This document shows, piece after piece, positions 2,643 to 47,172 of a DNA stretch of 48,139 nucleotides. Positions within the stretch are counted from its first letter, which is position 1. Every line of letters starts with the position of its first letter. The DNA comes from an uncultured Nitrososphaerales archaeon. Its GTDB lineage: Archaea > Thermoproteota > Nitrososphaeria > Nitrososphaerales > Nitrososphaeraceae. The stretch lies in contig CAVPXM010000058.1 in NCBI GenBank assembly GCA_963709405.1, positions 1-48,139 of the forward strand, read 5' to 3'. Under the pieces are notes generated by a model. That model ran no database searches. It saw only the letters and a list, made by a program, of their open reading frames with translations, and had not been told where the DNA came from. Made by a program: the position numbers and the translations under genes.

Positions 2643-3713
2643 TCAAGTGTCATATTTAATGTCGTCATACCATATTCCAAATGTTTTGTTTAGGTATTCT
2701 GATACCGCAATTTTTTGTTCTTCTATATGTTCATAGAATCTATTCCCACACACATCTGATTTTATCTGCTGGTTTACTTTCCTTTCATTTGGATTTAGGT
2801 ATGGTGCTTTCTTTGGTAGGTGGATTATAGTTAGCCAGTCTTCTTCTTTCTGTGCATTGATATAATTCCGTACCATTAGGCTTACATGGTATGAAGCGTT
2901 ATCCCATATGAGTATGAGTCTTTTCCACCAATCATTTTTCATAATGTTTCTCTTGAGATTCTCCAGATGGTCAATGGTATTCGTAGAATTCATTCTATCA
3001 TAGAAATCATACGTCATTAATTTCTCTTCAGGCCATAGCATGGATATGTATGTGGAGAACTTCTTTCTACTTCCATTATGTTCTATTTTCAGTTGCTCGC
3101 CTTCAAAACTCATGGACTTGTGAATACAAGGTTTCTGTGTTATGGTAGTTTCATCTTCAAATGCCATTATAACTCTCTTTTTTTCAGAGCTGATGCTACT
3201 TGCTTGTAGTTATCCACTCTCTTTTTCCCTTGTTCATAATCCTCTCCATGTAATAGTTCCAATTTTGGTCTTTTGCATCTAATTCCCATATCCTTAGTTA
3301 TTCTCTGCAGGTGTTTGAAGCTGATTGGAATATCAAGCCCATCTGTAAGACATCGTGCAAGTGACCTTAGACTCCACGTATTTCTAAGATAACCAAATAG
3401 ATGAGGATGGTTAAATAATGCTGATAGAATAATCTCTTTGTTTTTCGTCGGTTATGCTGGATTTCGATCCACCAGGTTTCTTCATCCTTACTCCATCATC
3501 AATCCCTTTCTTAATGTATGCAGCAATCCACCTTTGTACAGACCTGCTGCTGACTCCGTGTTCATTTGCTATATCTACATAAGATCTACCTTCAACTTTT
3601 TGGAGTATAGCCAGTAACCTGCGGTATTCCTTTTTGTTATTCGTATTCCTCAGAAATGACTTTGAGCTTATTCTTCTGTAGTATGGTAAGTATGAGTTTG
3701 GAAGATGATTCAC
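2643..3713 (-). mobile_element. IS630-family transposase, split over several frames
   Basis: N-terminal HTH (IANEHGVSSRSVQRW), FEDET, IWDNASYH and LPKKAPYLNPNE DDE motifs. Confidence 0.85.
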
Positions 3714-9311: not shown

Positions 9312-9520
9312 GCCTATCTTTTGTATAATGAGGAGAGGCCATCATTAGTCACTTTAATCTAACATTTTCAAAAAGTCCTCACTCGGAGTAGATAGGTCAT
9401 TAGAAGAAAGGAAACTAATAATTACTGGAACATTCGTCGAATGCACTATAATGCTTTTTTATTAGTGAAACATGTGACACTCATGGTATTAGTGAGTAAC
9501 AACTATCTCAAATATACAAT
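9312..9520 (+). repeat. Duplicated promoter block plus first codons of the DsrE gene
   Basis: Matches 31386-31452 joined to 31741-31881; ATG at 9483 followed by truncation. Confidence 0.85.
9426..9448 (+). promoter_or_regulatory. 23-bp palindromic operator
   Basis: tggaacattcgtcgaatgcacta; T-rich box from 9454, ATG at 9483. Confidence 0.85.
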
Positions 9521-9615: not shown

Positions 9616-10846
9616 CTAGTTGTGTGTTGGGTTTAATATTTCTTTAAGGTGTTCATCAGAAGTAGAATTAGCATTTGTCGCATCTACAACAAACCCTGCA
9701 CCCTGTAAAAATCTACCTATATCATGGTCGTTACCAACATAGAATCCTTGTTCAGGAAATACTACCTCTACAGATTCTGCAGAGCCAGGAGGTATTGAAA
9801 TTTCATATATTTTTGACCCTGACTGACTTTCGAAATGTGACCTTGTACGAGTATCAATTGGTTGTTTGTTGTCGGTATAATTATTACTGCTACGACCAAC
9901 TGAACTAATCATAGCAGAAGCAAAATTGAGTGAAAGAGAACCTCTTGGACCAGCATTGATGATATACCATCTTGTAAGTTCTCCTGGCTTGACTTTGAAT
10001 ATGTCTGCATCATTATTAAGTACAATTTTAGACAGAGAGCCAAAAAATGGCATGTACTTATAGGCCATACCGTTGGTTAATATTAAGTCAGGTTTATTTT
10101 CGATAAATTTGTTCATATCAAATGAGCCTATTTTGTCTTGATTTTCTTGTGCTGGCGTTGTCCTTTGTATTGTTCCTGAAGCATTAGTTTTGGTTGGTGC
10201 TGTGGTAGTAGAATTTGCAGTAGATAGAGCACCTTGAAATAATCCTCCATCTGCAGTATTATATATCTCTCCGAATACCATATAGAATTCTTTTGCAGGT
10301 TTCTCATATTTGGGATGGACTATCATGCCTCCATACATTCCACTGGCGATATGGTCCCAGATACCATTTAGATTATCCCCATCACAATGATACATAAAGA
10401 CACCAGGATTTTCTGCTTTAACTTGCCATGTTTTGCTTTCACCAGGGCGTACAGATAGCTAAAGCTTGACTTGGTCCTTCTATTCCATGCAGATCTAGAC
10501 TATGAACTAGCTCTCCTTTGTTTACTAGAGTAATCTGAAATGTCTCCCCTTGATTAACTACGATTATTGGGCCCGGTATAGTTCCATTAAAGGTCATTGC
10601 TCTATATAATATTCCTCCAGGATGTAATGCATTATCGGGCGAGATCTTTACTATATTTTCATCAGCAATTAAGATGAATTTCTTGATAGTATTGTTATTG
10701 TTAGGTTGTGATAGCAGTGTAGTCTGTAAAGATATTGATTTTTGATCATGTGATTGCCATCCTGAAAGGTGATTATTAATAGGCATAAATAATAGTATTA
10801 TCTGGAATATAATCAGAACAGTTATTCCTAAAATCAACTGATTCAT
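9616..10846 (-). CDS. nirK: NirK-like two-domain multicopper oxidase, frameshift near 10445
   Basis: HSLDLHG, YHCDGDNLNGIWDHIASGM (type 1/2 Cu ligands) and GNDHD; ORFs 10439-10846 and 9616-10395 join; paralog at 22367. Confidence 0.8.
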
Positions 10847-10955: not shown

Positions 10956-11430
10956 TGTACCCGGTACCAGCTGGGCAGCTTTAGGCCAGTTTTAAGATAC
11001 ACTTTGGAGGGTACAGAATATGCCAGGTAGAAGATGGAGTGGAGAAGAGAAGGCCAATATAGTGCTGGAAATATTGACCACAAGTACACCGACAGCCGAA
11101 ATATGCAGGAGGTACAACGTCAGACCAACCCTGGTCTACAGCTGGAAAGCAAGTTTCGTTCAAGCAGGTACAAGAGGTTTATCTGGTGCAGATGCATCGG
11201 ATAGAGAAAAGCAGCTGGAACAGGAAAATAAGAGACTCAAGGAAATGGTAGCTGACCTAGCACTGGCAAATGAACCTTTAAAAAAGGGGCGGACAAGGAT
11301 ATGAGAAAAGTTGCTTTTCAGGAGGTGTTGATGAAAGAGAGTAACATACTGAAAGCGTCTGTTCTGTCAGGATATTCCAGAAGTTCCTATTACTACAGGC
11401 ACAAGCAACCGGTTATCAGCAGAAATCGTC
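10956..11430 (+). mobile_element. IS3-family element, truncated (orfA and start of orfB)
   Basis: orfA 11020-11304 with HTH (WSGEEKANIV...ICRRYNV...LEQENKRLKEMVADL), slippery A-run at 11280-11287, orfB start SRSSYYY; ends are approximate. Confidence 0.8.
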
Positions 11431-11689
11431 GCACTGATTCAGCAGCACTCCATTTTGAATTCAGCTTTTCCGTTACGGCAAGTTCTAAGATCTTAGGCAT
11501 GCATGGCAGTCTGGTTACTATTCTCTAACTCGAAATTCAAGATGAATAAATAGAATGGTACAAGGACTAATTATGTTGAGCCATCAATCGGCGATGCATA
11601 TCCTGAGGGCAACAGCAACTGTTGGCTACTGACCTGAATTCACACGATTAGGAATTCTAAAAAAGGGATTAGGATCGATTTGCCCAATC

Positions 11690-12308: not shown

Positions 12309-13972
12309 ATGAATAAGTTCGTAAATACTCAGCTCATTCTATTCATGATCATATTTTGCCACGCGTCATATCTGGCTCCTTGTTTATTTTCCGACGTCAA
12401 TGCTCACATTTTTGTTTCTAGTGATGATAACGCTCCATTTCTTACATTAATTGAAAGAGTAAGAATAGAGGCGTTATTAGCAAACAATTCACTTCACTCC
12501 AATCTAACTTCTTCCAATGAGCATCTAGCTCAACTTTTAGATAGGCTAGATGATGTCATAGACAATGAGAACTATTTTGTAGTTAAGAGCCTATGCGAAA
12601 AGTCCACTTCTTCTATAGGTGATCCATGCACATGCAAAATGTAACATTCCAATATAGTTTTCAATCCTCTTTTCCCATCTTACCAGCAATCGTCTGAATC
12701 TGTTCATCCAAGAATGGGTTCTTTCAACAACCCATCGTCTAGCTCTGTATTTTGGTATTCCTTCTTTAATGCTCCTTCTTTCCTTTCCTTTTAATCTGAT
12801 GTGAATTGTATAGCCATACTCTTCCAGTAATTCGTATACCTCTGGAAACGCGTAGCCTTTGTCCATGCACATGTGCTGCTTTGATCTGATTGTTGGTTCA
12901 GGTCTATAGATGACTATGCTTTGCAATGTTGCTTTGGTCATCTTCATGTCATGCCTGTTAGCTCCATCTACAGATACACCAAGTGGTACTCCTTTACCAT
13001 CTACCAGAATACTACGTTTTGTACCTGATTGACTCTGTCTGTGGGATTTGGTCCTGTGCTTTTTTCCCCCAAGAGGCGCTTTTGTAATAACGCCATCCAT
13101 AGCCTGCCATTTCCAATCGATCCCAGTTTTTTTATCATATACCGACAATCCATCGATCCACATTCGCTTGAAAACACCAGCCTTTCTCCCTTCCTGGAAT
13201 CTGTCATGTACTGTACTTGAAGCACCAAGACTTCTAGGTAGAGCATTCCACTGACAGCCTGTACGTAGGACGTAGAAAATAGCACTCATGGCCTTCCTAT
13301 CATCCATTCTTGGACGACCAGCCTTTTTCTTCTTTCTCCTACGTATTGATGATGATAGCAATGTAATGATTCTATCCCATACAACATCAGGTATGCAGTA
13401 CGATGAATCAACTCCAGTAACCTCTGATATCAATACAGCTCAAAAGAAAGTGTAGTACCAGCTTAGCTTTATCGATCAAACACAGTTTGCTTATAACTCA
13501 ATAAAACTCTACTTTTCGGATGGGTTCTAAGAGTGAACAATTTAGTAATTCTACAGTTGATGCATTGTTTCTTGCAAACGTCGTGGATGAAATTTTGCAG
13601 TACTATGGAGGGGCATACGGAATCCTACCCAATGTAATGCTAAACATGTCTTCTATGTCTTCTATGTCTTCTATGTCTTCTATGTCGGCCAATTGTGAAA
13701 TTAAGCCCAATCCTAGGTCTATTATTGATATGTCCAAATATCAAACCGCTAAGGAATATGCAAAAAGGGCTGTGGAAATATTTGATGCAGAATTGAAACC
13801 GTATGAAACGAAAAATAATACCAGTACTGCTGGCCAGGTTGAGAAATCCCTTGCCGAATTGAAAAAAGCAGTAGACAATAAAGCTCAGCCACTAGAAATC
13901 ATGATTATCGTCCATACCAAAATTCATCCGAATTTGCAACTAGCGTACAATCTCAAGATTAGAAATAAATGA
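12309..13972 (+). pseudogene. Secreted His1/Met-loop helical protein interrupted by IS5
   Basis: VNA-HIF leader, (MSS)4 tract at 13646-13681, IVHTKIHP; homologous to 27710 and 41053; the uninterrupted junction is seen at 2092-2110. Confidence 0.85.
12587..13527 (-). mobile_element. Complete IS5-family element
   Basis: Transposase 12591-13433 (YVLRTGCQW, AMDG, MDKGY, RWVVERTHSW); imperfect IRs gagcctatgcgaaaagt / acttttcggatgggttc; TAA target duplication at 12584-12586 and 13528-13530. Confidence 0.95.
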
Positions 13973-14509: not shown

Positions 14510-16759
14510 TTAGAGCTCGCTACTAGCCATTTTCATGTTCGTATTCGAAGCTTGATGGGGAGCGTTTGTGATTTTAGAGGTAAACGCATAATTCAAATCA
14601 TAATCTCCTTGTCTCTGAGCAGCCATAGCAACATTCCATTCTCCCGGCAGACCGATAAATGCACCAACAGTAAATATATTTGGCTGAATTTTATGCATTG
14701 TGACAACGATGGGTCCGATATCTGCTTTTTCATTCTTGAAAATCAACTCAGCTCCTGTTACTTTGGCATAGGGTTTGCCATTTGGATCGGTAAAGGTGAT
14801 CTTAAATGTATTAAACCCTGAGTAAAATGGATTTATTTCTATCTTGGTATTTACATTCATTATATTTACTTGTTTTACATAAGTGCTATTTTTCATCTGC
14901 ATCTGACTTCCAGTCATGGCCATGTGAGATGAAGGTGCAGTTGACCCAGAGTGTGACATATCTGACATAGAGGCCATACTCATTGAATTAGGCGAAGTCA
15001 CGCTAAGTATAGATGCCACCAACAATACAGCCAATGCTAACAAGGATTCAATTCTAAGTGTATATCCAAATCTGGAAAAAATAGTCTCATCATTATTATT
15101 ATTTGCCAACCCAGAATAATCATTTTTCTTATTCCTCGCAATTAGATTAATGAGTTTTTGAACTTTTGTTTTTTTATCATCATCCTTTAAGGTTTGTACG
15201 ATTTGCTTGCTTTCACCAGTGTTCTTACCATTTTCCTCTTTTGGAGAGCTAATTCTAGCGCCAACCTTTCCAATATTTGTAATCATAACTATAAAACCAT
15301 GAATCTTTGTTTGATGGTATGCTCCTAGAAGAACTAATGGCAGGGCAACTGCCAACTTGATTATCAGAACATTTCCGTAAGGTGAATAAAACAATGCATT
15401 AAGAGTATGAAGCTCAATCCAAGCCATGTAAATGCCACTTATACCGACTATCCCGAGTGATAGAGTAGCAATAAGCGAAAACCTTGGAAGTAGAATAGCA
15501 AGATAATATGTCATTGAGTCAATCGTATTCTTGTTTGATGTATCGGTAACTCTTTTGATTTCATCTTTTGAACTCTGATTCATCTTCGCGTTTTTTGGTG
15601 AAATCAACTGTGGATGTGATATTTCTGATCGTTTCAATGAGGACAACAACACGGTCGAGATGTAAAACAAACCACCTACCCACAATGAAACTGCCATCAG
15701 ATGCAACCAGTCAATAAATACAGCTAGAGATGGAATGAAATTCACTGCTGCATTATGGCTTGCAATACTGCTCGCTAATATACTTACTGCACCCGCAACA
15801 AAAGCGAAGTACAGTAAGAATGATTTTGATGCTGGAAATTTACTCTTTTTGGAACTTTCATCATCTCTTTTCTTACGTAAGACGTAATAATTGATGAGCA
15901 CGCATATTATTATTATTGAGGAGGTTACAATATAAAGTAACCAAGATAGTCCTGTAGATCCATGCAATACAGATCTAAAGATCGACCAATAGCTAGAATT
16001 GCTATTAGCCGCAAGCTCAGTAACTTGCAAAAATAATGACGAACTCCCACTTGCTATGATAGCTACAGACGCAGATAACAATACAATACTAAATCTTCTT
16101 ATCCAAGGCAAAGTCGTCTTGAATTTAGTCTCATTCAAACCTTTTGAACTATTTTTTTTATAAATTTTACTTCCAAACATCTCCCATAAAAACAGATGAG
16201 AAAATATTCCTCCTACAATGGCTACTTGTGATACTATCAAAGGCCATTTTATCAATCCATCTAAATTAGATGTTACTGCAACTGTCTGAATACGTTGTTG
16301 ATTCAATGACGTGCCGATATTAGATGAACCCCCACTAGCTCCCCCAGGGCCAACATTTCCTATTCCGAATACGTAAGATCCTCGTGCGATATGGCCATCA
16401 TCAATAGATTGTGTCATCCACGAAACAGTATATACTCCATCTGTCAATTTATGAGATTTTAATGTTGTTTTAGCTTCACGATTATGATCTCCAATGATTA
16501 TGAAATTATTATTGTCCACTCTTTGGTTCATTGCATTCAAAACTTGTATAGTACTTACATTAGGATCAGGTCTTTCTGAAAAATCGATCGTTATTTGCGT
16601 AGGAATTGGCATGCCCTTTTTTATTATAGAATTAGGAGCAGGTGTTTCGGTTACTGGAAGTGAATGAGCATAGGCATAATTTAGACTATTACTATTTAGA
16701 CTAGTTAAAAGAAAAATGGCAACTAGTGAAAATATGACCGCTATGAAGATTTTGTTCAT
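14510..16759 (-). CDS. copCD: CopC-CopD fusion copper uptake protein with Met-rich linker and C-terminal YtkA-like domain
   Basis: AYA-HSLP mature N-terminus, SIDDGH, ASHNAA, WLHLMAVSLWVGGL, RFS..A, YG..LIIKL; MSMASMSDMSH linker. Confidence 0.92.
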   Translation of the reverse strand: MNKIFIAVIFSLVAIFLLTSLNSNSLNYAYAHSLPVTETPAPNSIIKKGMPIPTQITIDFSERPDPNVSTIQVLNAMNQRVDNNNFIIIGDHNREAKTTLKSHKLTDGVYTVSWMTQSIDDGHIARGSYVFGIGNVGPGGASGGSSNIGTSLNQQRIQTVAVTSNLDGLIKWPLIVSQVAIVGGIFSHLFLWEMFGSKIYKKNSSKGLNETKFKTTLPWIRRFSIVLLSASVAIIASGSSSLFLQVTELAANSNSSYWSIFRSVLHGSTGLSWLLYIVTSSIIIICVLINYYVLRKKRDDESSKKSKFPASKSFLLYFAFVAGAVSILASSIASHNAAVNFIPSLAVFIDWLHLMAVSLWVGGLFYISTVLLSSLKRSEISHPQLISPKNAKMNQSSKDEIKRVTDTSNKNTIDSMTYYLAILLPRFSLIATLSLGIVGISGIYMAWIELHTLNALFYSPYGNVLIIKLAVALPLVLLGAYHQTKIHGFIVMITNIGKVGARISSPKEENGKNTGESKQIVQTLKDDDKKTKVQKLINLIARNKKNDYSGLANNNNDETIFSRFGYTLRIESLLALAVLLVASILSVTSPNSMSMASMSDMSHSGSTAPSSHMAMTGSQMQMKNSTYVKQVNIMNVNTKIEINPFYSGFNTFKITFTDPNGKPYAKVTGAELIFKNEKADIGPIVVTMHKIQPNIFTVGAFIGLPGEWNVAMAAQRQGDYDLNYAFTSKITNAPHQASNTNMKMASSEL

Positions 16760-16911: not shown

Positions 16912-17488
16912 CTATGGAATTGTTGCATCAGCCTTTGGCAGAGGACAACCAAAACCGCCTGCGACACCTTGACTTTGCACTCCAGATGAAAGTGTCATTT
17001 TATTGTTATTTCCCGGGTGATCATCGCCTGCACCAGGAACACATTTGTAGCTGATATGAATCGGGGTATTATTTATTGTTCCATGTCAATGTATAGGTAT
17101 ATGTTGTTTGAGCACCTGGAAAGAATGTGGCAGTATAGTGAGCTGGATTACTATCATCGGGTTCAAAATCTAGTGTTTTATTTTTTGGACCAGCTGAGAC
17201 CTCAACTTTGACAGTCTTTTCTAAACCTGTTATAGGCTTGGTACCATTGGCTCCATCATTCAAAGGGTCTTTAGGATCAGGGGTATATGCGAAAAAGTCT
17301 ACTCCAGATCTATCACCCACATATACGGGTTCGCTAGCTGAACCAACTACAAGTAACGCTGGCTTTCCTCCTATTGTTAGGAGTTGTCTTTCATGTGCAA
17401 ACACACTTGTGCTCATTGAGAAAAAGAGCACTGCACTAAGAAAAGATATTACAGGTAACAATGCGTACTTCGTATTTTTGATATCCAT
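16912..17488 (-). CDS. Secreted His1 GGFGC-family protein, frameshift near 17085
   Basis: VFA-HERQ leader; continues GTINNTPIHISYKCVPG...VAGGFGCPLPKADATIP* to 16912; paralog of 19631. Confidence 0.75.
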
Positions 17489-17524
17489 AATTAAGATATG
17501 AGAAAGTTTGCAATTTAAATCTTG

Positions 17525-17547
17525 TATGACATTCGACGAATGTACCA
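17525..17547 (-). promoter_or_regulatory. 23-bp palindromic operator
   Basis: Minus strand tggtacattcgtcgaatgtcata, 5 bp, TTTAAA (17519), ATG at 17488. Confidence 0.9.
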
Positions 17548-18130
17548 AAATCCTTGGGAATCACTCTAAGTTTCTAAATCATGTGGTGTGGATTATACTG
17601 ATATACCGTAACATAACGTGTTGCTATTTATTGAAATGGCTCTATATTTATATAATGAATATCATGATCTTCTTAATTCAAACTAGCGCTTTGTCACTCT
17701 TATAGATGTATAAAATTTATATTATAATCAACTGAAACAAGATCCCTCCTTCAAGTGGATTATTGCTTGGATGTCAAGTTAAACTTGAATTCCGAAATTT
17801 CAGTCTTGAGCGGATTGAAGAGTATACCATAAATTAGAATCTTGATTACGTCCTGACCAGCTGGTAAATTGTGATTGCCAAGAATCGGCACCTCAATTTC
17901 CCCATTATAGGTGTGCAATGGGATTTGTGGTTGACCAGTTTCGTTCGAATACTGGAATTTCACTTTATTATCTTTCAAAATTAGAAAATTATAATCTACG
18001 TGTTGTTGTAATATATTCGTGTGTGGTTTAAAGAAGAATACCTTAAAAAGTTCCTTCAATTCAGGGTCAGAATGAATGTTTGACTTTTCAACTGAGATAT
18101 CCAAACTTCCCCGATCGGTTGAATTTCTTC
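17546..18130. repeat. Direct duplication of 24767-25352
   Basis: The intergenic part and the 3' half of the gene are nearly identical by eye. Confidence 0.85.
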
Positions 18131-19630: not shown

Positions 19631-20223
19631 ATGCAAATGAAAATCAACAAGAATATGCTATTGTATACTTGTGGGTTTACAACGGCTGCATTAATTTTAT
19701 TGTCTATAAATGCACAATCCGCGTCAGCACATCAAAGAGGGCTTTTCACGATAGGAGGAAAAGATTACTTACTTGTAGTCGGTTCACAGAACGACCCAGT
19801 ATTTATAGATGATAAATCAGGAGTTGATTTTTTCGCATATACGCCAGATCCAAACGATCCAATGAACTCTCAGTCGAATGGCACAAAACCTCTAAGTGGA
19901 TTAGAAAATACACTGAAGGTAATTGTCTCTGCTGGAAACAAAAATCAAACATTTGATCTCGAACCTGCATTTAGAGATCCAGGACACTATAATGCGCCAT
20001 TCTATCCTACGGTACAGACAACTTATTCATATACATTGAATGGAACAATAAATAGATAACTCTACAGTCAAAATCTCAGATGGAGTTGAAAGTAAAGGAT
20101 TAGCGGGTGGTTTCGGATGTCCAGAAGCTCAGAACACATGTTGCATTCCCTGAACCATATGAGTCAAATGTAAACCTTCAAGCGAAGTTAGCAAAAATTG
20201 GAAATAAGACTTTGGAAAAATGA
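19631..20223 (+). pseudogene. Secreted His1 GGFGC-family protein with internal deletion/frameshift near 20055
   Basis: ASA-HQR leader, strong similarity to 17488; a downstream frame gives NSTVKISDGVESKGLAGGFGCPEA; 3' end approximate. Confidence 0.75.
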
Positions 20224-20724
20224 ATCTAACGAAAAATGACTTGGGTTAAGTATTAGTCACTACAATATTTCACCATTTTTTTGTGCATATTGAGAAGTGA
20301 TATAATACTGAGTAGATACAAATCAGTTTTTCAATTTAGCCAGATCTTCATAAGAGGGAGAGTACTATGAAATAATCAGTGTTTATTAGGTTGCTAATAT
20401 CTGGATGTATGTTCTGAAATATGCAAGATTCACCTTTCCTCATGGAGAGTGGCATTTATTCGCATCATCCACGAATGGTATTTTTTGGCATTATGTAATC
20501 GCAAAACCAAGGAGTTATTTTTTCAGTTCTATTTTATCTCCTATTGTCGTGATAGTTTATTCAGGAAAAATTCGAATTATGTGTTTCTGGAGTAGTCTTT
20601 CTGCGCTTAATGAAATCATCAAATTATTAACGTTTTTCATTCCTGATCGATATTAACTTACGTAATTAGTCATTTATATGATTTCGGTATACTTTATCCC
20701 GCGACCCTGCATAAAGTCGTTCAT

Positions 20725-20747
20725 TACTCTATTCGACGTTTGTACCA
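20725..20747 (+). promoter_or_regulatory. 23-bp palindromic operator upstream of the sensor/regulator operon
   Basis: tactctattcgacgtttgtacca, 5 bp, CTTAAA (20753), ATG at 20782. Confidence 0.75.
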
Positions 20748-20781
20748 TATTACTTAAATTAGGTGATTGACATTATCGAAT

Positions 20782-21199
20782 ATGCAATCAAGTAGGCTTC
20801 CTATAAGCAATATTGCAGACAGTAAGCCCAAGTTACTTGGATTAATATCAGTTCTTGTTATAGGGATTTTGGCTGTACCCTGTAATTTTGCCTCATGTAA
20901 GTCATGTTGACATGATATATCATATTCTACTACACTTAGCGAGCCTAATTATTTCGATTTTCCTTGGTACTGTGTCCCTCATTGCTTACAACAGAAATCG
21001 GTGTGGTAGGCTATTATTTATGGCAATGGGATTTCTATCACTAATAGTAATTGAATGCTTATACTTGGTATTTGCAACAACAAATATCGAGGATATAATA
21101 ATACCAGTAGTAAGGATTGAATTGCCGCATGTGATACTTTTTGCAATGTTAACCTTATTTGGTATTGGGATCTTCAGAGTGAGTAACAAGAATTTATGA
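20782..21199 (+). CDS. His-rich small integral membrane protein (about 4 TM), frameshift near 20880
   Basis: MQSSRLP...LLGLISVLVIGILAVP then LPHVSHVDMIYHILLHLAS...IELPHVI; stop overlaps the next ATG. Confidence 0.75.
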
Positions 21200-21780
21200 A
21201 TTCAGATTCAAGAGCATTAGAGGAAACTCCTATAATAAATCATCCTACTCACATCATTCAGATTTCACAAGAATCTAAACGAATTATTAGTGTATCACTT
21301 TTAAATCACATTAACAGAAATCCTGGCATAAGATATAGGGAACTCCTTAGATTGTCCGGCATCGGCAACGGCGTCTTAACATACCATCTTTTGATACTGG
21401 AGAGGAAGGGTAAAATAAGAGTACATAGAATTAGAAATAAGATGACAAGATATTATCTTACACAAATTCCAGATAAAGATACAAAGATTATAAGCTCTCT
21501 AAAAAATAAGATGACAAGACAACTTGTACTCTTCATTTTGACTCACGACATGTGTTCATTTAGGAAAATAGTTGAATGCAATGGAAAGGCACCATCTACT
21601 ATATCATGGTATCTTAACAGATTAAGAGACGTAGGAATTGTATCTATAGAAACTGGGGAACGCTGTCAACTTTATACTTTAGCCGATAGTAAAGAGATCA
21701 AGAAGATATTATGTAGATATAAAGAAGTATTCTTGGATAAATGTGTGCATAACTACATTGAAATGATGGATCAGCTATAA
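21196..21780 (+). CDS. Archaeal double winged-helix transcription regulator
   Basis: INRNPGIRYRELLRLSGIGNGVLTYHL and a second HTH KAPSTISWYLNRLRDVGIV. Confidence 0.88.
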   Translation: MNSDSRALEETPIINHPTHIIQISQESKRIISVSLLNHINRNPGIRYRELLRLSGIGNGVLTYHLLILERKGKIRVHRIRNKMTRYYLTQIPDKDTKIISSLKNKMTRQLVLFILTHDMCSFRKIVECNGKAPSTISWYLNRLRDVGIVSIETGERCQLYTLADSKEIKKILCRYKEVFLDKCVHNYIEMMDQL

Positions 21781-22366: not shown

Positions 22367-23587
22367 CTATCTCGGAATCCAAGTTCCTTTAGGATGATCA
22401 TAAGAAGTGGAACTATCGACCGCTAGCACAACAAAACCTGCGCCTTGTAAGAATCTGCCTATATCGTGGTCGTTACCTACATATGATCCTTGTTCTGGGA
22501 ATATAGCTTCTATTTCCTCTGCTGAACCTGGAGGTATTGAGATTTCATATACTTTTGATATTGACGATAATGGATGAGTATTAGTAATAATTGAGTCGAT
22601 TGTTAAGTTGTTATTAGTATAGTTATTAGTATTGGTATTATAATGTATGGTTTTAATCATTCCAGAAGCAAAGTTAAAGGAGAGATAACCTCTAGGACCA
22701 GCATTGACTATATACCATCTTGTCAGTTCACCTGGCTTGACCTTGAACACTTCTGCATTTTTATTAAGAATTATTTTGCTTACAGTGCCAAAAAATGGCA
22801 TGTACTTATATGCCATACCATTGGTTAATATCAAATCAGGTTTATTTGCAAGAAATTTATTAATATCAAACGAACCTATTACTCTTTTTGCAGATGCACC
22901 AGTAAATGACATATTTGAATTATCGTTATTGTTACTATCTACTGTATTTGAAGCATCTGTGAATAATCCACTATCAGCTGTATTGTATATTTCTCCGAAT
23001 ACTACGTAGAATTCTTTTGCTGCTGGTCTCTCATTTTTAGGATGGACTACAATTCCACCATACATTCCACTAGCAATATGATCCCAGATACCATTTAGAT
23101 TATCTCCGTCACAATGGTACATAAAAACGCCAGGGTATTTTGCTATAGCTTTCAGTGTACTATTTTCACCGGGTTTTACGGAAGAAACCAAAGCATGAGT
23201 TGGGCCTTCTATTCCATGTAAATCTAAACTGTGAACAAGTTCTCCTTTATTATATAACGTTATCTGAAACATATCTCCTTGATTGACTACAATTGCTGGA
23301 CCTGGTATAGTGTCGTTATATGTCATTGCTTTGTATAAAATGCCACCTGGATGTAGTGTATTGTCAGGAGAGATCTCTACTATATTTTTATCGTCTGCAA
23401 TTAAAGTAAATTTCTTTATACTTTCGTGATTGTTGCGCGTATTCAGTTGTGAAGGTCTCATTGTTGATGATGGTAAAGGATAGGTTTTTTGGTCATATGA
23501 TGAAAAGGCTGAAATGTGACTGGTATTATTTAGTATTAGTAATACTACTCCTTGAAAAATAATCAGTAGAGTTATTATTATTCCCAT
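22367..23587 (-). CDS. nirK: NirK-like two-domain multicopper oxidase
   Basis: HSLDLHG, YHCDGDNLNGIWDHIASGM, GNDHD; the ORF-track extension to 23659 is partly the antisense of an RTX remnant. Confidence 0.82.
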   Translation of the reverse strand: MGIIITLLIIFQGVVLLILNNTSHISAFSSYDQKTYPLPSSTMRPSQLNTRNNHESIKKFTLIADDKNIVEISPDNTLHPGGILYKAMTYNDTIPGPAIVVNQGDMFQITLYNKGELVHSLDLHGIEGPTHALVSSVKPGENSTLKAIAKYPGVFMYHCDGDNLNGIWDHIASGMYGGIVVHPKNERPAAKEFYVVFGEIYNTADSGLFTDASNTVDSNNNDNSNMSFTGASAKRVIGSFDINKFLANKPDLILTNGMAYKYMPFFGTVSKIILNKNAEVFKVKPGELTRWYIVNAGPRGYLSFNFASGMIKTIHYNTNTNNYTNNNLTIDSIITNTHPLSSISKVYEISIPPGSAEEIEAIFPEQGSYVGNDHDIGRFLQGAGFVVLAVDSSTSYDHPKGTWIPR

Positions 23588-23611
23588 ACCTGGCTCAACC
23601 AATATGCCATA

Positions 23612-23836
23612 CCTGGCAATGATATCATATATAGAGGTAATGGTGATGATTATATGCAAGATGGGCCTGGAAACGATAAGATCTATGCAGAAAATGCTGA
23701 TGATAAGTTGGTTGTTGGTCCAGGTGCAGATTTATTCGATTGTGGACCAGGAAATGATGTAGTTAAAGACTTTAATGCAACTGAAGGAGATGTTCATCTA
23801 GCCAACTGTGAAATGATTGAAGATGACAATGATTAA
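23612..23836 (+). pseudogene. 3' remnant of the RTX calcium-binding gene (paralog of 5595-6124)
   Basis: PGNDIIYRGNGDDYMQDGPGNDKIY...ANCEMIEDDND matches 5900-6124. Confidence 0.85.
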
Positions 23837-24170: not shown

Positions 24171-24729
24171 CTAGTAATCAAGAACTACCGGGCGTTGGTC
24201 GATTATTTTTTGCATTTTAGGCATCTCTGGATGTGTGTCAATCTCTATGCCAGGAAGAAGATTCTCGATAGTCAATCCAGCCATCTTCACGCAGTGGTCA
24301 CATGCAATTACCCTGCCTCCTTCATTCAGGAACAGTTGAAGCGTTTTACTTACTGGTTCTAATGGTCCGGTTACATTTTTCGTTGCAATCTTAACCCCGT
24401 TTACGTCAAGGAGGATCGATACATCTTTGCCGTCTCGTAACATAGTTAATGAATGATCCACTCCCATCATTGCCGAATGGACTTCATAAGTGCTATTGCT
24501 CTCTCCAGGTACTTATATGTACTAATACAGGAGTACCTTTTCCAAGTAAATGCATTTTTGATACTGGAGCTGTTGTTGCATTCATGTCCATATTCATGCC
24601 CATCGAACTAGGAGTAGAGGTCTGTGCAAGTACGGAATTTTGGGCTAGCATATTAATTGTGATAGCACCTGTAACTAGACTAGCAATTGCGAGTGCAGTT
24701 ATTATATATTTTAGATGATTGTTTCTCAC
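24171..24729 (-). pseudogene. Inverted copy of the secreted DsrE-family gene, frameshifted, with TATA and ATG deleted
   Basis: 24110-24600 is close to the reverse complement of 31985-32472; frameshift near 24505. Confidence 0.82.
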
Positions 24730-29600: not shown

Positions 29601-30107
29601 GTGGTATTGAACAAGATTACCATACACGGGATTCATTATTTTTCCCCACTAGTAGGTCATGCATTACCGCCAAAGAGCTATATTCATCTATACGATACGA
29701 CACCATATCATATTATGAATGGCCATGTAGCAATTAAGGTCCCATGTAATGCTAAGTCTGAACCGTCAGTTCAGATCTTAGATGGAGTAGCACCTTTTTT
29801 ACAGCCAGCTAAATTGGAGCTAATTTCTAAATTGTCTGTTCCTGGAAGTATATGCTTGTACCATCATGATTTGATTTCGATAATGGGTCCACAAGGTAGA
29901 CTGATTACTGATGTTGCACTAATGAACCCAACTGATTCAGAAATTGTCTTTCCCAAGACCAGTACTGTAGTACTAGGAGTAAATGAGATCATGTTGGATC
30001 CCGATGCATTTCCTGAAGAAATGAAAGAAATGGGAAATATGACAGCAGTTTCTTTTTCCCATTTCCCTCCCCTCAAAGAACCATCGTGTCCATGTATGCT
30101 GCTATAG
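29601..30107 (+). CDS. HxYDxTPY-family His/Cys protein (paralog of 36963 and 47929)
   Basis: HLYDTTPY...GHVAIKVPC...CLYHHD...TDVAL.NP...GVNEI. Confidence 0.75.
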   Translation: MVLNKITIHGIHYFSPLVGHALPPKSYIHLYDTTPYHIMNGHVAIKVPCNAKSEPSVQILDGVAPFLQPAKLELISKLSVPGSICLYHHDLISIMGPQGRLITDVALMNPTDSEIVFPKTSTVVLGVNEIMLDPDAFPEEMKEMGNMTAVSFSHFPPLKEPSCPCMLL

Positions 30108-31786: not shown

Positions 31787-31809
31787 TGGAACATTCGTCG
31801 AATGTACTA
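31787..31809 (+). promoter_or_regulatory. 23-bp palindromic operator
   Basis: tggaacattcgtcgaatgtacta; T-rich box from 31815, ATG at 31844. Confidence 0.9.
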
Positions 31810-31843
31810 TAAAGCTTTTTTATTAGTGAAACATGTCACACTC

Positions 31844-32410
31844 ATGGCATTAGTGAGTAACAACTATCTCAAATATACAATAACTATACTAGCAATTGTT
31901 GGTGTAGTTACAGGAGCTGTCACAATTAATGATCCCGCCCAAAAATTAGTACTTGCACAGAGTTCTAATCCTGCTTCGATGGCCATGAATATGGACATGA
32001 ATGCAACAACAGCTCCAGTATCAAAAATGCATTTACTTGGAAAAGGTACTCCTGTATTAGTACATATAAGTACTGGAGAGAGCAATAGCACTTATGAAGT
32101 CCATTCGGCAATGATGGGAGTGGATCATTCATTAGCTATGTTACGAGACGGCAAAGATGTATCGATCCTCCTTGACGTAAACGGGGTTAAGATTGCAACG
32201 AAAAATGTAACCGGACCATTAGAACCAGTAAGTAAAACGCTTCAACTGTTCCTGAATGAAGGAGGCAGGGTAATTGCATGTGACCACTGCGTGAAGATGG
32301 CTGGATTGACTATCGAGAATCTTCTTCCTGGCATAGAGATTGACACACATCCAGAGATGCCTAAAATGCAAAAAATAATCGACCAACGCCCGGTAGTTCT
32401 TGATTACTAA
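31844..32410 (+). CDS. Secreted DsrE/DsrF-like protein with CxxC and Met-rich N-terminus
   Basis: Signal peptide, SMAMNMDM, VSILLDVNGV, GGRVIACDHC. Confidence 0.85.
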   Translation: MALVSNNYLKYTITILAIVGVVTGAVTINDPAQKLVLAQSSNPASMAMNMDMNATTAPVSKMHLLGKGTPVLVHISTGESNSTYEVHSAMMGVDHSLAMLRDGKDVSILLDVNGVKIATKNVTGPLEPVSKTLQLFLNEGGRVIACDHCVKMAGLTIENLLPGIEIDTHPEMPKMQKIIDQRPVVLDY

Positions 32411-32513: not shown

Positions 32514-32985
32514 TCAAGTGTCATATTTAATGTCGTCAATCCAAGTTCCAAATCTACTCTCTAGATAACCTGATACTGCAGCTTTCTGTTCTTCTATTTG
32601 CGTATAAAATCTGTTTGCACACACATCTGATTTTATCTGCTGGTTTACTTTCCTTTCATTTGGATTTAGGTATGGTGCTTTCTTTGGTAGGTGGATTATG
32701 GTCAGCCAGTCTTCTTTCTGTGAATTGATATAATTCCGTACCATTAGGATTACATGGTGTGAAGAGTTATCCCATACGAGTATCATGAGCCTTTTCCACC
32801 AATCATTTTTCATGATGTTTCTCTTGACATTCTCCAGATGGTCAATAGTATTCGTAGAATTCATTCTATCATACAAATCAAACGTCATTAATTTCTTCTC
32901 AGGCCATAGCATGGATATCTATGGGCGAACTTCTTTCTACTTCCATTATGTTCTATCCTTTGTTGCTGGCCTTCAAAACTCATTA
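32514..32985 (-). mobile_element. IS630 transposase 3' fragment (diverged copy of 2643-3115)
   Basis: VWDNS, LPKKAPYLNPNE; same 3' end IKYDT. Confidence 0.85.
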
Positions 32986-33709
32986 GTAACTTGGCTTTGA
33001 CAAATTAAACTGGCTCATAATTTTCTCTATCTATCAATCCTTCAACGATCAGTTTGCTAATTTGTTGAATCTCGACTTCTATCTGTTGCTTTGTTCCTTG
33101 TTAGTTCTTGATTGATTTGACATTGCATATTCCCTAAAACAGTATCATAAAGTCTCTTTCGATTTCGTGCATTTAGGTACCAAAAACAGGTAGCAGGATA
33201 CAAGTTAGAATCTTCTATTAAAGAATACAACGAACACATGGACAAATGCAATAAAATGATGGCATGCCTAAGAGAGCGAGCTATAGAAGAAGGATTTACT
33301 ATTACCGAACCAGAGCTAATCCAAGAGGTCGATAGATTCGTAGAGTACTGCAGACGGTTGTACCTTAGAACCGTCAAAACGATCATGGTTGGAGCTGACC
33401 CCCGAACAACGCTATCAAGAGAAAAAAAATGACTGGTGGGGTCATGAGTGACGGCGTCTGGTTGCGATACGGAAATGTCTATGTGAGTCCTGACAAACCT
33501 GGCTGCTGTCAGACGCTGGATGTATCGAAGAATGCCTATACTATCCAGACACTGGAAGGATCGAAGACGAGGAAGTAGAAAGCTGGTATAACTAGCAAAA
33601 ACTTAATCTAATGATAGATCGTTGACTGTAGAAGTATCAGATCGATAACATAGTTACCAAAATTAGAACTTAAATACAACAATGTAGTAAATTACATTAT
33701 CCAAACAAT

Positions 33710-36962: not shown

Positions 36963-37550
36963 TTAACCGCCTGGAACTCCTGGTTGGATCTCGTTTACAC
37001 CTACTACTGCAGTGCTACTTGGTGGAAATGTTATGGGCTGGTCAGAGGGATTTTGTAATGCTACATCTGTCTGGTAAACTTTCTTTGCAGGATCTGAATC
37101 AATATCTACGTGATACAAGCACATATTTCCAGGCTGTGATAATTCCTTTATAATATCTGGTTCTACAACTTTGAACGCGGGAGCGGGTCCAATAAGTACG
37201 TTTACATTGGCCTTAGAATTCAAGTCACATGGAACATGTAGAGCTACGTGTCCGGCATTTATCATGTATGGTGTAGAATCGTAAATATGTAAGAATCCCT
37301 TCCCTGGTATGGTCTGGCCTTGTAGAAGAAGTGTAATAGTGTCTCTAGTAACTGTACTTTGATTGCCTGTGGGACTAGCTGATGACATATTCATGCTTGA
37401 CATTCCTCCACTAGTTCCCTGATCTTGTGATGGATTCAGTGGATTAGTCTGACCTAGGACTTTCGTAATTCCTGTTGTCATAATAGCTAATGACAGTGCA
37501 ATTGCAACCAACATTCCAAATGCAATTCCGTTATTTCTATTACTTTTCAT
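36963..37550 (-). CDS. Secreted HxYDxTPY-family His/Cys protein with Met patch
   Basis: Signal peptide, GMSSMNMS, HIYDSTPY...GHVALHVPC...CLYHVD. Confidence 0.82.
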   Translation of the reverse strand: MKSNRNNGIAFGMLVAIALSLAIMTTGITKVLGQTNPLNPSQDQGTSGGMSSMNMSSASPTGNQSTVTRDTITLLLQGQTIPGKGFLHIYDSTPYMINAGHVALHVPCDLNSKANVNVLIGPAPAFKVVEPDIIKELSQPGNMCLYHVDIDSDPAKKVYQTDVALQNPSDQPITFPPSSTAVVGVNEIQPGVPGG

Positions 37551-43487: not shown

Positions 43488-44700
43488 TTGGTACTAATAA
43501 CGATGACTGAGATACTTCTAAGAAAATATTTGCCTGTGTTGGTCAGACAGAATGGTGTACTTATTGATAATACAGGGCAGACCATAGGTCAGCAAGTTAT
43601 AGATCTCAAAAAGAAGATTTCCTGTCTTGGAAGCGGCAAACAAGGTAAAGAAAAAAAGGCAGAATTAAAACAAAATCTAGTCGAACTATTAGAAAATTCA
43701 AGAACACTTATCGATCTTAGCGGCACTATACTTTTATTTTTAGAACCACCGGATAGAGAACTTTGGAATTTACTAAAGCCTATATTGTCACATGATAAAC
43801 CTGAAATCGAATTTCCGTATGTTGAAAAAACTCAAAACGAAGGATTTGTCACAAAGAAAGTTATTGTAAGAGGTTGGCCAGCATGCATTTTTTGTAGTGC
43901 TAAAGATGAAAGTGATTGGCCGGGTTGGCCTGAGAGTCATGAGTCGATTCATAATAACATCCCCTAACATGAATCAAACCAAATATCTGGAATCAAATAT
44001 GCTAATAGCCCAGACTCAAAGTCTTACCACGTCTTGTGCAAGAGAAAATTATTATTTCAACTAGAGATGAAGAGTTGGCCAAACAGTGTGTTTTAGATTT
44101 GCTAAGAGAGATCCAGGATTTTTCTAAAAGTGTTGGCCAAGGATCATTTGATAACGATTTCGAATATGGATTCCATATGGAAATATTCTTGGTGAGGTTC
44201 TAAGGTCAGAAAAAGGAACTGATAACCGAACTAACTAAACGACTTTTGACTTTTATCAAAATAATTGCTATTTCCAAAGTCTAAATTACGGCAGAAATTG
44301 ATCTATGTTCAAGAGGAATATGTAATTGCAAGTCTAGATGATCTAGCCGAAGCACTATATATAACCCAGAACATAAGCGGTATCCCAGCTTACAAATTGA
44401 AGATTTTATAGAGAAATCTTTCTTGAATTATTCAGATCAAAAGAGAGAGGTAGATACTAGTGAAGATAAAACCAAAAAAGAATCCATAATAGCAGTAACG
44501 ACCAAAGCAGTTATCAGACTATTATAAAGAAAAATCAGGAAGAGCAATTTCTGCTGAGAATATAAGTAAGACATTTTTAAATGAACTACTCAATCATGAT
44601 TATATAGGCTCCGTCGAGTCTGTTCTTGACAGAAGACAGAATATCTACTATCCCTTAGTTGAGCTGACGATGATAATATCGCAGATGAGAATCAGAACAA
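43488..44700 (+). pseudogene. Mobile-element helicase/NTPase-like gene, 5'-truncated and frameshifted
   Basis: IDLSGTILLFLE...LKPILSHD...VRGWPACIFC...MSRFIITSP resembles the Walker B, sensor and Arg-finger region of AAA+ replicative helicases; Walker A not seen. Confidence 0.55.
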
Positions 44701-44836
44701 TAATGATAGCAACGACGATGAAAAAATAAAGAATTTAAAGAATTCAGGCAAATTCCGTAATTTCCAACAATATTCTAGGATAACATTACCTAAAAATTGT
44801 AGATCTATTCCTGAAAACTGGTTAATATTTGAGATT

Positions 44837-47172
44837 TTGGGTCTTGCGAAATACGGAATTGATTTAGATAGTTTTAGTGGTTGTATTGCAGACGAGTTAA
44901 ACAATAACAATAATCTAAAACTGTTAGATAAAGATGGAAATAGACTAACTGTAAAACAATTCACAACAGAATATGAGAAAGATACTTCTTTAATTCTGTA
45001 TTTTAGAAAGGCCAAATTTAACACTTTTTACAATAAAAATTCTGGATACATAATATATCTTGGAGAAGATTGGCAAGAAGGATATAGGAAATTATGGAAT
45101 CAAGACATATTCCTCAAATTCCGTAAATTTGATGAGCAGTATAATCAACGTCAAGAAAGATCACAGGAAAGTCCAAAACCAAATAATAATAATAATTCAC
45201 AAGAAAAGTCTGAAGTAATAGAACAAAAGATTCGTGAATTAGAACAGAAAATTAAACCATTTGCAAACTTTGTGGCATGGGATCTGGAATGGATGCCAGA
45301 ACCTGATGAAACAGGCATTAAAAGAATAACAATGGCCTCATTTGTTGACAGTAATGGAAAAAAGAAGGTCTTCCATATCCTAGACCAACCATTTGCAAAT
45401 AGTGCAAATCCTGCAGAGGCCTTGATAACTGCTATTCTTGACGAACTGAGTAACTATGACATTTCCATAGGACATAATATTTGTGGTATATCGGATGGAA
45501 AAGGACGTGGGGTTGATTCAGATCTGATAACACTGCAAAGTAATTGTTATGCAAATAACATAGATTCATTCAAAGTTTGAATTGAGCCGCACTCATATTA
45601 ACCGAAACACTATGACCATATCAATGCCTATTATTAGAATAAATGGAAAATCACATGAATGTATCGACACTCTCAAAATATTTGACAACCAGGCAATAAA
45701 AACAGCTTTGGCAGGTGAAGGAATAGAGTATAGAACTAACAAACTTGACGAAATATCAAAAGCGGTTTTGGGCGAATCTGAAGGTGGTAAGTTAGAAGAT
45801 CTAGATGGAATAGAGATCCAGAAATTGCCAATAGAAAAACAAAAGGAATACTGTTTGAGGGATTCTGAACTTGTTATGAAATTAATTCAGTATAAGGACG
45901 GGAATCAGAAAATAATGAAAATGCTGAAGTACTATTTCAGCAGTGACTGGATTAAGTCTAATTCAAACATGTCATGGCACACCAATGTCTTGGTGGAAGA
46001 AAATATTAGAAAATACTGGTCGATTATTACCTTCACAAATTGAAAAACTACCCTATACTGGTGGCAAAGTCTTTGAACCTATTCCAGGACTTTATGAAAA
46101 CCTCTTGAATATTGACGTAGCCAGTCTGTATCCGACTATGGCCATTACTTATAACATTAGTCCAGAGACTATAAACTGTGATTGTTGTAGAAACGATCCA
46201 GAAGCAAGAGTAAAGCAAGAGGTATTACAAGTGATAAATCAGGATCTGCTAAGAGAACAGAAAATAGAAAAACCAAGGGACTACGGGATCTGCAGACATA
46301 CAAAAGGTATATTTTCAGAATTACAAGAGGAATTTAGAGATATCAGATTATACTATAAAAAGATAGATAAACCAAAGGCAGATGCGTTGAAAATTTTGAT
46401 GAATTCAGGTTACGGAGTATTTGGTAATGAATACTTTAAATATAGAGATTATAGAGTAGCAGATCTTATTGCAGGTTATGGACGATACACATTAGACAAA
46501 ATGAAGGAAATAGCCGAATCATTTGGTTTTAAAATAATTTATGGTGATACAGATTCACTATTCTTGCAAGGAGATGATGAAAGCAAACTTGAATTATTCA
46601 TTAAGGCATGTCGTGACGCACTGAAAGTTGATGTAGAACTTGACAAAAAATTCAAAAGAATTCTATTCAATGGAAATAGAAAAGAATATTGTGGAATAAC
46701 TACAGAAGGAAAATTTAGCAATCCAGACAATCCTCTGATTAAAGGTGCTTATGCAATAAAGGATAATGTCCCTAGATTGTTTGAAAATAAATATAGACAG
46801 TTTATCAAAGAATTGTTGGCCCATGGTATTTCAAATATTGAAAACATAGTAGGTGATATAATATTAAAAACAATACAAGATCTTGGAAATAAGAAAGTAG
46901 ATAATTACGATGATCTATTGTATATTACGCAGTTATCAAAAAACCCCGAAGATTACAAAGATGAAAATGCCTCAAAAACTATAGGAATGCAGCAAAACAA
47001 AAGAAAAGGCGAATTAATAAAATATTTCAAGAGAAATGATGGTAAGCCAACGATAAATCCGGATGAAATTGGCTGGGAAAAATATAAGTTGGAATATTTA
47101 AACCTCTTTAGAAGAGACCTACAAGCAATAGGATATGATATGTCTACCTTAAGGGTTGCCTGTGGTAGATGA
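44837..47172 (+). CDS. polB: Family B DNA polymerase of mobile-element type, split by two frameshifts
   Basis: Exo motifs WDLEW, GHNI...DL, YCLRD; polymerase motifs DVASLYP, KILMNSGYG, YGDTDS. Confidence 0.9.

Follow-up and report, generated by a model that had tools for sequence, protein, structure and literature searches.

The window, a 48,139-nt stretch of DNA that is contig C58 of a 4.83-Mb Nitrososphaeraceae metagenome-assembled genome (MAG; 37% GC), encodes proteins whose nearest named homologues also come from Nitrososphaeraceae and carries on its forward strand a compact two-gene operon. In the register of a 23-bp pseudo-palindrome, the operator of this operon spans 20725-20747 (6 mismatches to the palindrome consensus), its conserved part being a bipartite TTCG-N5-TGWACYA unit at 20732-20747. 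It is followed, at 20748-20759, by a 5-nt spacer at the BRE position (A-poor, a weak BRE) and a TATA-like box (CTTAAAT, 20753-20759), and then by an ATG at 20782, so that the operator-TATA unit described in the first-pass annotation is indeed found ahead of the membrane gene. This gene (20782-21199) codes for a 138-aa protein with four helices, and its stop codon overlaps by 4 nt (21196-21199), as had also been noted, the ATG of a second gene (21196-21780) that encodes a 194-aa double winged-helix (wHTH) regulator with an HVO_0163-type N-terminal HTH, an ArsR-like second HTH and a conserved acidic C-terminal helix.

In the assembly a single extra base, at approximately 20878-20881, splits the membrane gene, which begins in frame 1 at 20782 and passes near 20880 into the frame of an ORF at 20888-21199. 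When joined, the two frames align with homologues of 133-145 aa at identities of up to 88%; a 103-aa ORF starting at TTG 20888 was rejected as the true membrane gene, the homologues being longer (133-145 aa) and matching the upstream frame. A frameshift near 20880 had been flagged for checking against reads: it is real in the assembly, and a 431-nt contig of the public run X4 spanning 20684-21115 shows no substitution and a single gap, the base at 20878, which is absent from one distant contig in run X3 as well. Since near-identical public contigs also lack single bases found here at 20130 and 22028, the extra base in the membrane gene is probably an assembly error. The island assembly is indel-prone at these sites too, and other split genes in it may be intact. 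Real pseudogenisation of this copy of the membrane gene is a disfavoured reading. Frameshifts cluster in the three contigs that carry the islands (8 of 20 genes there, versus 0 of 11 genes on other contigs), which makes decay of the islands in this strain possible. All three copies of the gene pair in this assembly are damaged, the copies on contigs C6 and C59 being broken and that on C6 carrying an in-frame stop.

The H-x2-H-x5-H-x3-H cluster and further PH previously noted in the roughly four-helix protein are present as H38, H41, H47 and H51 and as P115-H116, respectively. Together with M44, the cluster forms an H38-x2-H41-x2-M44-x2-H47-x3-H51 stripe (20894-20935) at the outer end of helix 1 and the start of helix 2, while E91 in helix 3 and E113-x2-H116 in helix 4 (21053-21130) add outward-facing candidates for metal binding. 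Comparison of 112 distinct membrane homologues revealed that H47, H51 and E91 are invariant and that H116 (111/112), E113 (110/112), H38 (107/112) and H41 (106/112) are nearly so, with Met or His at position 44 in 98. Judging from the charge distribution of the protein, all of these His, Met and Glu candidates lie on the outer side and none in the cytoplasm. An AlphaFold2 (AF2) model comprises four long helices (pLDDT 70.5), and neither Pfam, NCBIfam and Atlas nor the Foldseek and VIA fold searches named a family or fold for it: Foldseek returned no match at E≤0.001, VIA retrieved generic helical bundles only (a designed bundle scoring best, at Z 10.7), and the profile scans gave no CopD match. 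Matches below cut-off were obtained for MHYT (10/30 members, best E 0.015) and MASE3 (2/30, best E 0.0029) in Pfam, for MASE3_PAS_HK in NCBIfam (6/55, best E 0.0018), and for DUF7521 and DUF7471 (4/30 and 1/30 members), a distant member reaching 25.4 against a cut-off of 27; Atlas scores for this comparison were 0.77-0.81. Longer, fused forms were not seen among 7999 candidates, which is weak evidence.

The regulator is a two-wHTH protein, as had been proposed: its N-terminal domain scores 32 bits against HTH_HVO_0163_N (PF24266; cut-off 31), its second domain matches HTH_5 at residues 107-150, two stretches match HTH_24, and the AF2 model built from the orthologue alignment contains two helix-helix-helix-wing units (pLDDT 80.8). 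NCBIfam HTH_metalloreg stays well below its threshold (23.7 bits versus a cut-off of 55), and a fold search with the model gave nothing beyond partial matches to single-wHTH and ScpB-like structures. The two recognition helices hardly vary, and neither does the operator. Five Cys are present, in line with the several Cys first reported, but only C120 is conserved (73/81 regulators; H117 in 49/81), so that the implied Cys-based metal site lacks support for four of the five; C120 itself is absent from the sequences shown of a second family (f13), in which the operator is nonetheless kept. Of the 114 regulators that have a membrane neighbour, 111 carry the acidic C-terminal helix; it is missing in six of nine without one, three of these six carrying an N-terminal transmembrane (TM) segment of their own; the association is a hint only, because the helix profile was built from paired proteins. 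In the monomer model this helix is predicted with low confidence, as would be expected of a segment that binds a partner. Prediction of a complex of regulator residues 26-194 and membrane protein residues 10-138 from paired alignments scored 0.00 in two runs in which the controls did not fold, and yields no verdict.

To place the pair in a wider context we surveyed related genomes, with the proviso that kin genomes are not independent samples. Of 61 related genomes, 41 have the membrane gene, among them 34 of the 36 that belong to the family. The gene is also present in 35 of 45 genomes of the second family, f13, which falls in the same taxonomic order and whose small genomes hint at the marine-type lineage. 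The regulator gene lies directly 3' of it in 69 of the 72 loci with room for it, in 27 of 30 in another count, and in 29 of 29 loci of the second family. Translational coupling appears near-universal: intergenic distances fall between -4 and +4 nt in 62 of 67 distinct pairs (the others being one of -23 and four of +33 to +86), and the 4-nt stop/ATG overlap recurs in 30 of the 67. In the genome of the window the regulator family is found at three loci, all of them paired.

The palindrome occurs at 11 sites in the window at ≤6 mismatches, versus a mean of 0.12 (maximum 1) in 200 shuffles. To compare promoters, we scored TG(T/A)AC(C/T)A upstream of the membrane gene and found it at 94 of 114 distinct loci by strict and 100 of 114 by relaxed matching, as opposed to 13 of 114 on the reverse strand and a mean of 4.3 (maximum 10) in shuffles. 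The logo of the 100 promoters reads TTCGA-N4-TGWACCA-N5-YTTAWAT; therefore the autoregulatory site, read from this alignment, is the asymmetric unit TTCG-N5-TGWACYA, the palindrome being by the same reading two such units interlocked. At the locus itself, a TTCS-N5-TGWACYA unit (20732-20747) precedes the start codon at 20782, within the range of 35-70 nt taken to mark members of the published copper-limitation regulon. Interlocked units could well be read by a protein whose two HTH heads differ, which we take as a hint only, and so is a test of half-sites against diagonal units (rank correlations +0.06 diagonal and -0.21 adjacent), in which 27 of 154 sites, chance sites included, were diagonal-only and 14 half-only. 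In 79 of the 94 promoters scored, 5 nt separate operator and TATA box, and few A residues occupy the BRE position, with AA at -4/-3 or -3/-2 in 2 of 100 promoters compared to 37 of 141 generic promoters of the window's genome. None of the sites examined overlaps a TATA box or a start site.

Operator and gene pair also travel together. A strict operator-plus-TATA pattern matched 19 times in 121 whole genomes (0 in the control), 14 of the 19 lying just 5' of a located membrane gene, and 67 strong sites were counted in 696 kb near pairs versus 1 in the control. The full palindrome is present in 27 of the 61 genomes, all with the membrane gene, and in 0 of 20 genomes without it, while 14 genomes with the gene lack it at ≤3 mismatches in this search for the palindromic form. 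Within pair-bearing genomes of the second family, 20 of 31 non-autoregulatory sites fall within 12 kb of the pair; a looser pattern matched 39 times genome-wide versus 21 in the control, and enrichment away from the pair is therefore modest. In one clade, of 6 loci, the pair is no longer preceded by a site, although two of these loci (L085 and L099) keep palindromes at neighbouring genes. Nine of ten second-family genomes without the membrane gene lack the double-wHTH gene and a good site as well (sites there are at most chance-like). The tenth, G193 (70 contigs, 99% complete), has two good sites before typical targets; the cognate pair was not found in it, its double-wHTH belonging to another subclade with a His-less three-helix neighbour, which may reflect an assembly gap or recent loss. 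A motif network without the pair had been named at the outset as what would speak against the regulator, and G193 is the single such case. The proposal that the regulator is the palindrome binder thus stands as that of a candidate with strong comparative support (94/114 loci, co-absence, clustering, and the induction of the probable N. viennensis orthologues and of motif genes under copper limitation), tempered by the unpaired sites of G193.

Ten further operator copies lie in the window at 9426, 17525, 19579, 21971, 24737, 27653, 29545, 30369, 31787 and 37592 (a span of 9426-37614, listed irrespective of strand), among genes for a CopC/CopD fusion, two multicopper oxidases, DsrE-like, CHRD and Met/His-rich exported proteins. 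Together these genes make up the local set of putative targets. The CopC/CopD fusion gene (14510-16759, reverse strand) follows an operator-bearing gene, at 17069-17548, that is encoded on the same strand. Across loci, 63 of the 76 first ORFs downstream of operators have a signal-like N-terminus, and 23 of these 63 contain an AxAH cleavage motif, compared to 7 of 409 other proteins of this kind in the genome; cleavage at this motif would leave a His at the mature N-terminal end. The commonest target (19/76) is an exported family of approximately 200 aa with conserved His (HLYDSTP...GHVALH) and no Pfam match, a candidate new copper-binding protein, with copies at 36963-37550 and 29601-30107 in the window and at loci L033, L060 and L193. 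A second exported family (12/76; 17069-17548 and 19631-20059 in the window) likewise has a mature end starting with His and no Pfam match. The island also encodes ZnuA-type and DsrE genes, and the G000 contigs C55, C69 and C73 bear strong operator copies beyond the three islands.

Other features of the island deserve mention in their own right. A family B DNA polymerase gene (PF00136), split over several frames, occupies 43488-47172 at the island end together with ORF neighbours and suggests either an integrated self-replicating element or a frameshifted assembly. Transposase-like ORFs or fragments are found at 2643-3713, 11020-11528, 12591-13433 and 32514-33386, and many genes are present in two copies, e.g. 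the multicopper oxidase genes at 9616-10846 and 22367-23659 and the DsrE-like genes at 24171-24729 and 31802-32410. An AT-rich 36-nt intergenic repeat family (D15) occurs at 17698, 24921, 28893 and 36820; a profile of these four copies detected no further copy in the window's genome or the fetched loci.

The operator is related to a published element. In the one transcriptome study of copper limitation that we found for a soil strain, Reyes et al. (2020) reported the motif TTCSGSMTTTGWACYANT before genes induced by copper limitation in Nitrososphaera viennensis (PMC7785015), and this motif carries the same TTCS-N5-TGWACYA core as the operator described here; full palindromes are visible in the printed upstream sequences of NVIE_1444 and NVIE_1457 (PMC7785015). 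In that study, the hypothetical gene NVIE_014290 bears the motif and is induced under copper limitation (log2FC 2.72), as is the ArsR family gene NVIE_014280 (log2FC 2.47), which is co-transcribed with it beside copC/D (PMC7785015). Over its final 49 nt, the upstream sequence printed for NVIE_014290 agrees at 42 positions with that of the membrane gene at locus L030 (ungapped, by eye), and the two N. viennensis genes are probably the orthologous pair, an assignment made on upstream DNA, annotation and context and not on protein comparison. Published induction under copper limitation is confined to N. viennensis (PMC7785015). Reyes et al. left Cop regulation open and suggested either a two-component pair, the CopRS-like NVIE_030040/030060, or repression of down-regulated genes by NVIE_014280; their paper names no regulator for the motif and mentions neither palindrome, TATA spacing, His/Met/Glu site nor conservation in other families (PMC7785015). 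More recently, Dreer et al. (2025) termed NVIE_014290 a 'putative cation channel protein' and observed that its cluster is induced in biofilms as well (PMC12448741). Our literature search, with subscription papers such as that on the N. maritimus copper transcriptome outside its scope, retrieved no paper that assigns this regulator or describes the His site. Motif and induction are already published, while we came across no printed account of the pair as putative controller, of the geometry of the operator, of the set of ligands or of the cross-family conservation.

The logic of a membrane partner without a kinase has precedents, and the module is fairly called non-canonical only with that reservation and with the motif in print since 2020. 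PF1088 (TFB-RF1) of Pyrococcus furiosus is a single-wHTH protein of approximately 100 aa. TFB-RF1 is an autoactivating regulator encoded, as here, in one operon after a gene for a protein with four TM segments (PF1089), and its site likewise lies directly upstream of a weak BRE; it controls a small regulon of transport genes in response to a signal that is not known (PMC5937170). The resemblance is one of gene layout and promoter geometry. The TFB-RF1 operator (TRBM) is the 13-nt TCTGAANTTCAGA as opposed to TTCG-N5-TGWACYA, and no metal link is reported for that system (PMC5937170). SdpI/SdpR of Bacillus subtilis is likewise kinase-free, the membrane protein binding an outside ligand and sequestering a co-encoded ArsR-family autoregulator, but there the ligand is a peptide toxin and the regulator a single-HTH repressor (PMC2910880). 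SdpI also differs from the membrane protein at hand, the SdpI model being absent among Pfam matches of 30 members and NCBIfam matches of 55 members. Among HVO_0163-type (PF24266) regulators, to which the present one is assigned above cut-off, the one mention of HVO_0163 itself that the literature search turned up concerns an increase of this protein under hypochlorite (PMC10294847). A small gene lies just 5' of haloarchaeal plasmid double-wHTH relatives in three of four loci viewed, and one such gene weakly matches both DUF7521/DUF7471 and the ammonia-oxidiser alignment. In the membrane protein of ammonia-oxidising archaea, helices 2-4 show a weak likeness, at scores below cut-off, to DUF7521/DUF7471 and these small haloarchaeal genes; helix 1 and the His/Met/Glu set are additions relative to the DUF7521/DUF7471-like three-helix neighbours. 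Other double-wHTH relatives have three-helix neighbours or an N-terminal TM segment of their own, the latter as PF24266-type fusions in other families of the phylum (L199, L200, L201, L204 and L209). In Haloarcula hispanica (L226:1861-5486) a double-wHTH relative sits between nosL and nosD/ABC, copper-maturation genes of N2O reductase.

Taken together, the membrane protein and the double-wHTH regulator are the best candidates for a copper-starvation switch of ammonia-oxidising archaea. The best overall explanation, whose chances we consider even, is that the operon controls a copper-limitation regulon through an activator with an outward copper-binding partner. Its parts differ in strength: judging from the comparative evidence, the regulator likely binds the operator; if it does, it probably activates rather than represses; the membrane protein probably binds copper, as its conserved residues suggest; and whether it senses outside copper and directly controls the regulator, by holding or releasing it, is evenly balanced. 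In such a mechanism, one HTH of each regulator monomer would probably read TTCG and the other TGWACYA, with two interlocked TTCG-N5-TGWACYA units making up the 23-bp palindrome, and the regulator would sit just 5' of the weak BRE and help TFB/TBP onto promoters, its own included. The four-helix partner would load copper on its outer His/Met/Glu site and, when loaded, keep the regulator at the membrane by way of a basic cytoplasmic loop opposite the acidic C-terminal helix; copper shortage would then release or activate the regulator and induce CopC/D, multicopper oxidases and the exported proteins that start with His. More tentatively, and with somewhat less than even confidence, the pair may be a kinase-free two-protein extracytoplasmic copper sensor gating a TFB-recruiting tandem-wHTH activator, a copper-specialised member of a wider archaeal class. 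The metal sensing by the membrane partner that the first-pass annotation had envisaged is therefore plausible in view of the invariant outward His/Met/Glu set, as an inference with which a transporter role competes. Pairing alone does not show metal sensing, because His-less three-helix relatives adjoin other double-wHTH genes.

That transporter role is the main rival reading, though an unlikely one: the regulator would be cognate and itself sense copper in the cytoplasm (e.g. through C120/H117) or another ligand, while the membrane protein would be a co-regulated copper or cation channel, importer or chaperone. Copper transport paths such as those of Ctr/CopD typically show a His/Met stripe of period 3 as well, and C120 is kept in most regulators (73/81). 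NVIE_014290 has moreover been termed a putative cation channel (PMC12448741) and is induced along with uptake genes (PMC7785015). However, the candidate ligands appear from the charge distribution to be all on the outer side, double-wHTH genes of haloarchaea and other lineages are coupled with relatives that have no His, and some regulators are TM-anchored, which points to a regulatory membrane part, and cytoplasmic sensing by C120 is at odds with its loss from the second-family sequences shown, where the operator is kept. An improbable variant of the same module has the regulator as a repressor that covers the BRE at sufficient copper and leaves at scarcity, by SdpR-like sequestration of an apo-sensor; the last operator bases do touch the BRE position, the second HTH is ArsR-like and SdpI/SdpR sets a precedent (PMC2910880), but the strict 5-nt spacing and the A-poor BRE (2/100 versus 37/141) fit a contact-dependent activator, and the sites examined leave TATA box and start site free.

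It is equally improbable that the signal is something other than copper (Zn, Fe/heme, redox or envelope state) and the copper-limitation response indirect. His3-Glu sites bind Zn, Fe and Mn as well, the island contains ZnuA-type and DsrE genes, and the membrane protein has a weak, sub-threshold likeness to MASE3/MHYT sensor domains; the biofilm induction of the N. viennensis cluster (PMC12448741) points the same way. Set against this are the Met/His exchange at position 44, the CopC/D and multicopper oxidase targets together with exported targets that start with His, and direct copper-chelation transcriptomics in N. viennensis (PMC7785015). Finally, the pair might be a mere target of the motif with another factor binding the operator, e.g. 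the CopRS-like NVIE_030040/030060, as would accord with the two-component suggestion of Reyes et al. (PMC7785015) and with the unpaired sites of G193. We regard this as very improbable in view of the co-absence of pair and site in nine of ten second-family genomes, the clustering of sites around the pair even where its own site is lost (L085 and L099), the invariant recognition helices and the fact that this regulator family alone is found in the window's genome, always paired.

Copper enzymes are essential to ammonia-oxidising archaea, and in both soils and oceans nitrification is limited by the supply of copper. With a specific candidate regulator, its operator geometry and candidate ligands now named in two families, the question of how these organisms regulate copper becomes testable. 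In MAGs, copper-stress regulons could be recognised by the operator sequence, which also singles out dozens of exported proteins, so far unannotated, as candidates for copper acquisition. If the membrane partner directly controls the regulator, the pair would open a class of kinase-free archaeal transmembrane signalling, and this wider class, PF24266 regulators with DUF7521/DUF7471-like partners or fused TM anchors, would be widespread and as yet uncharacterised.
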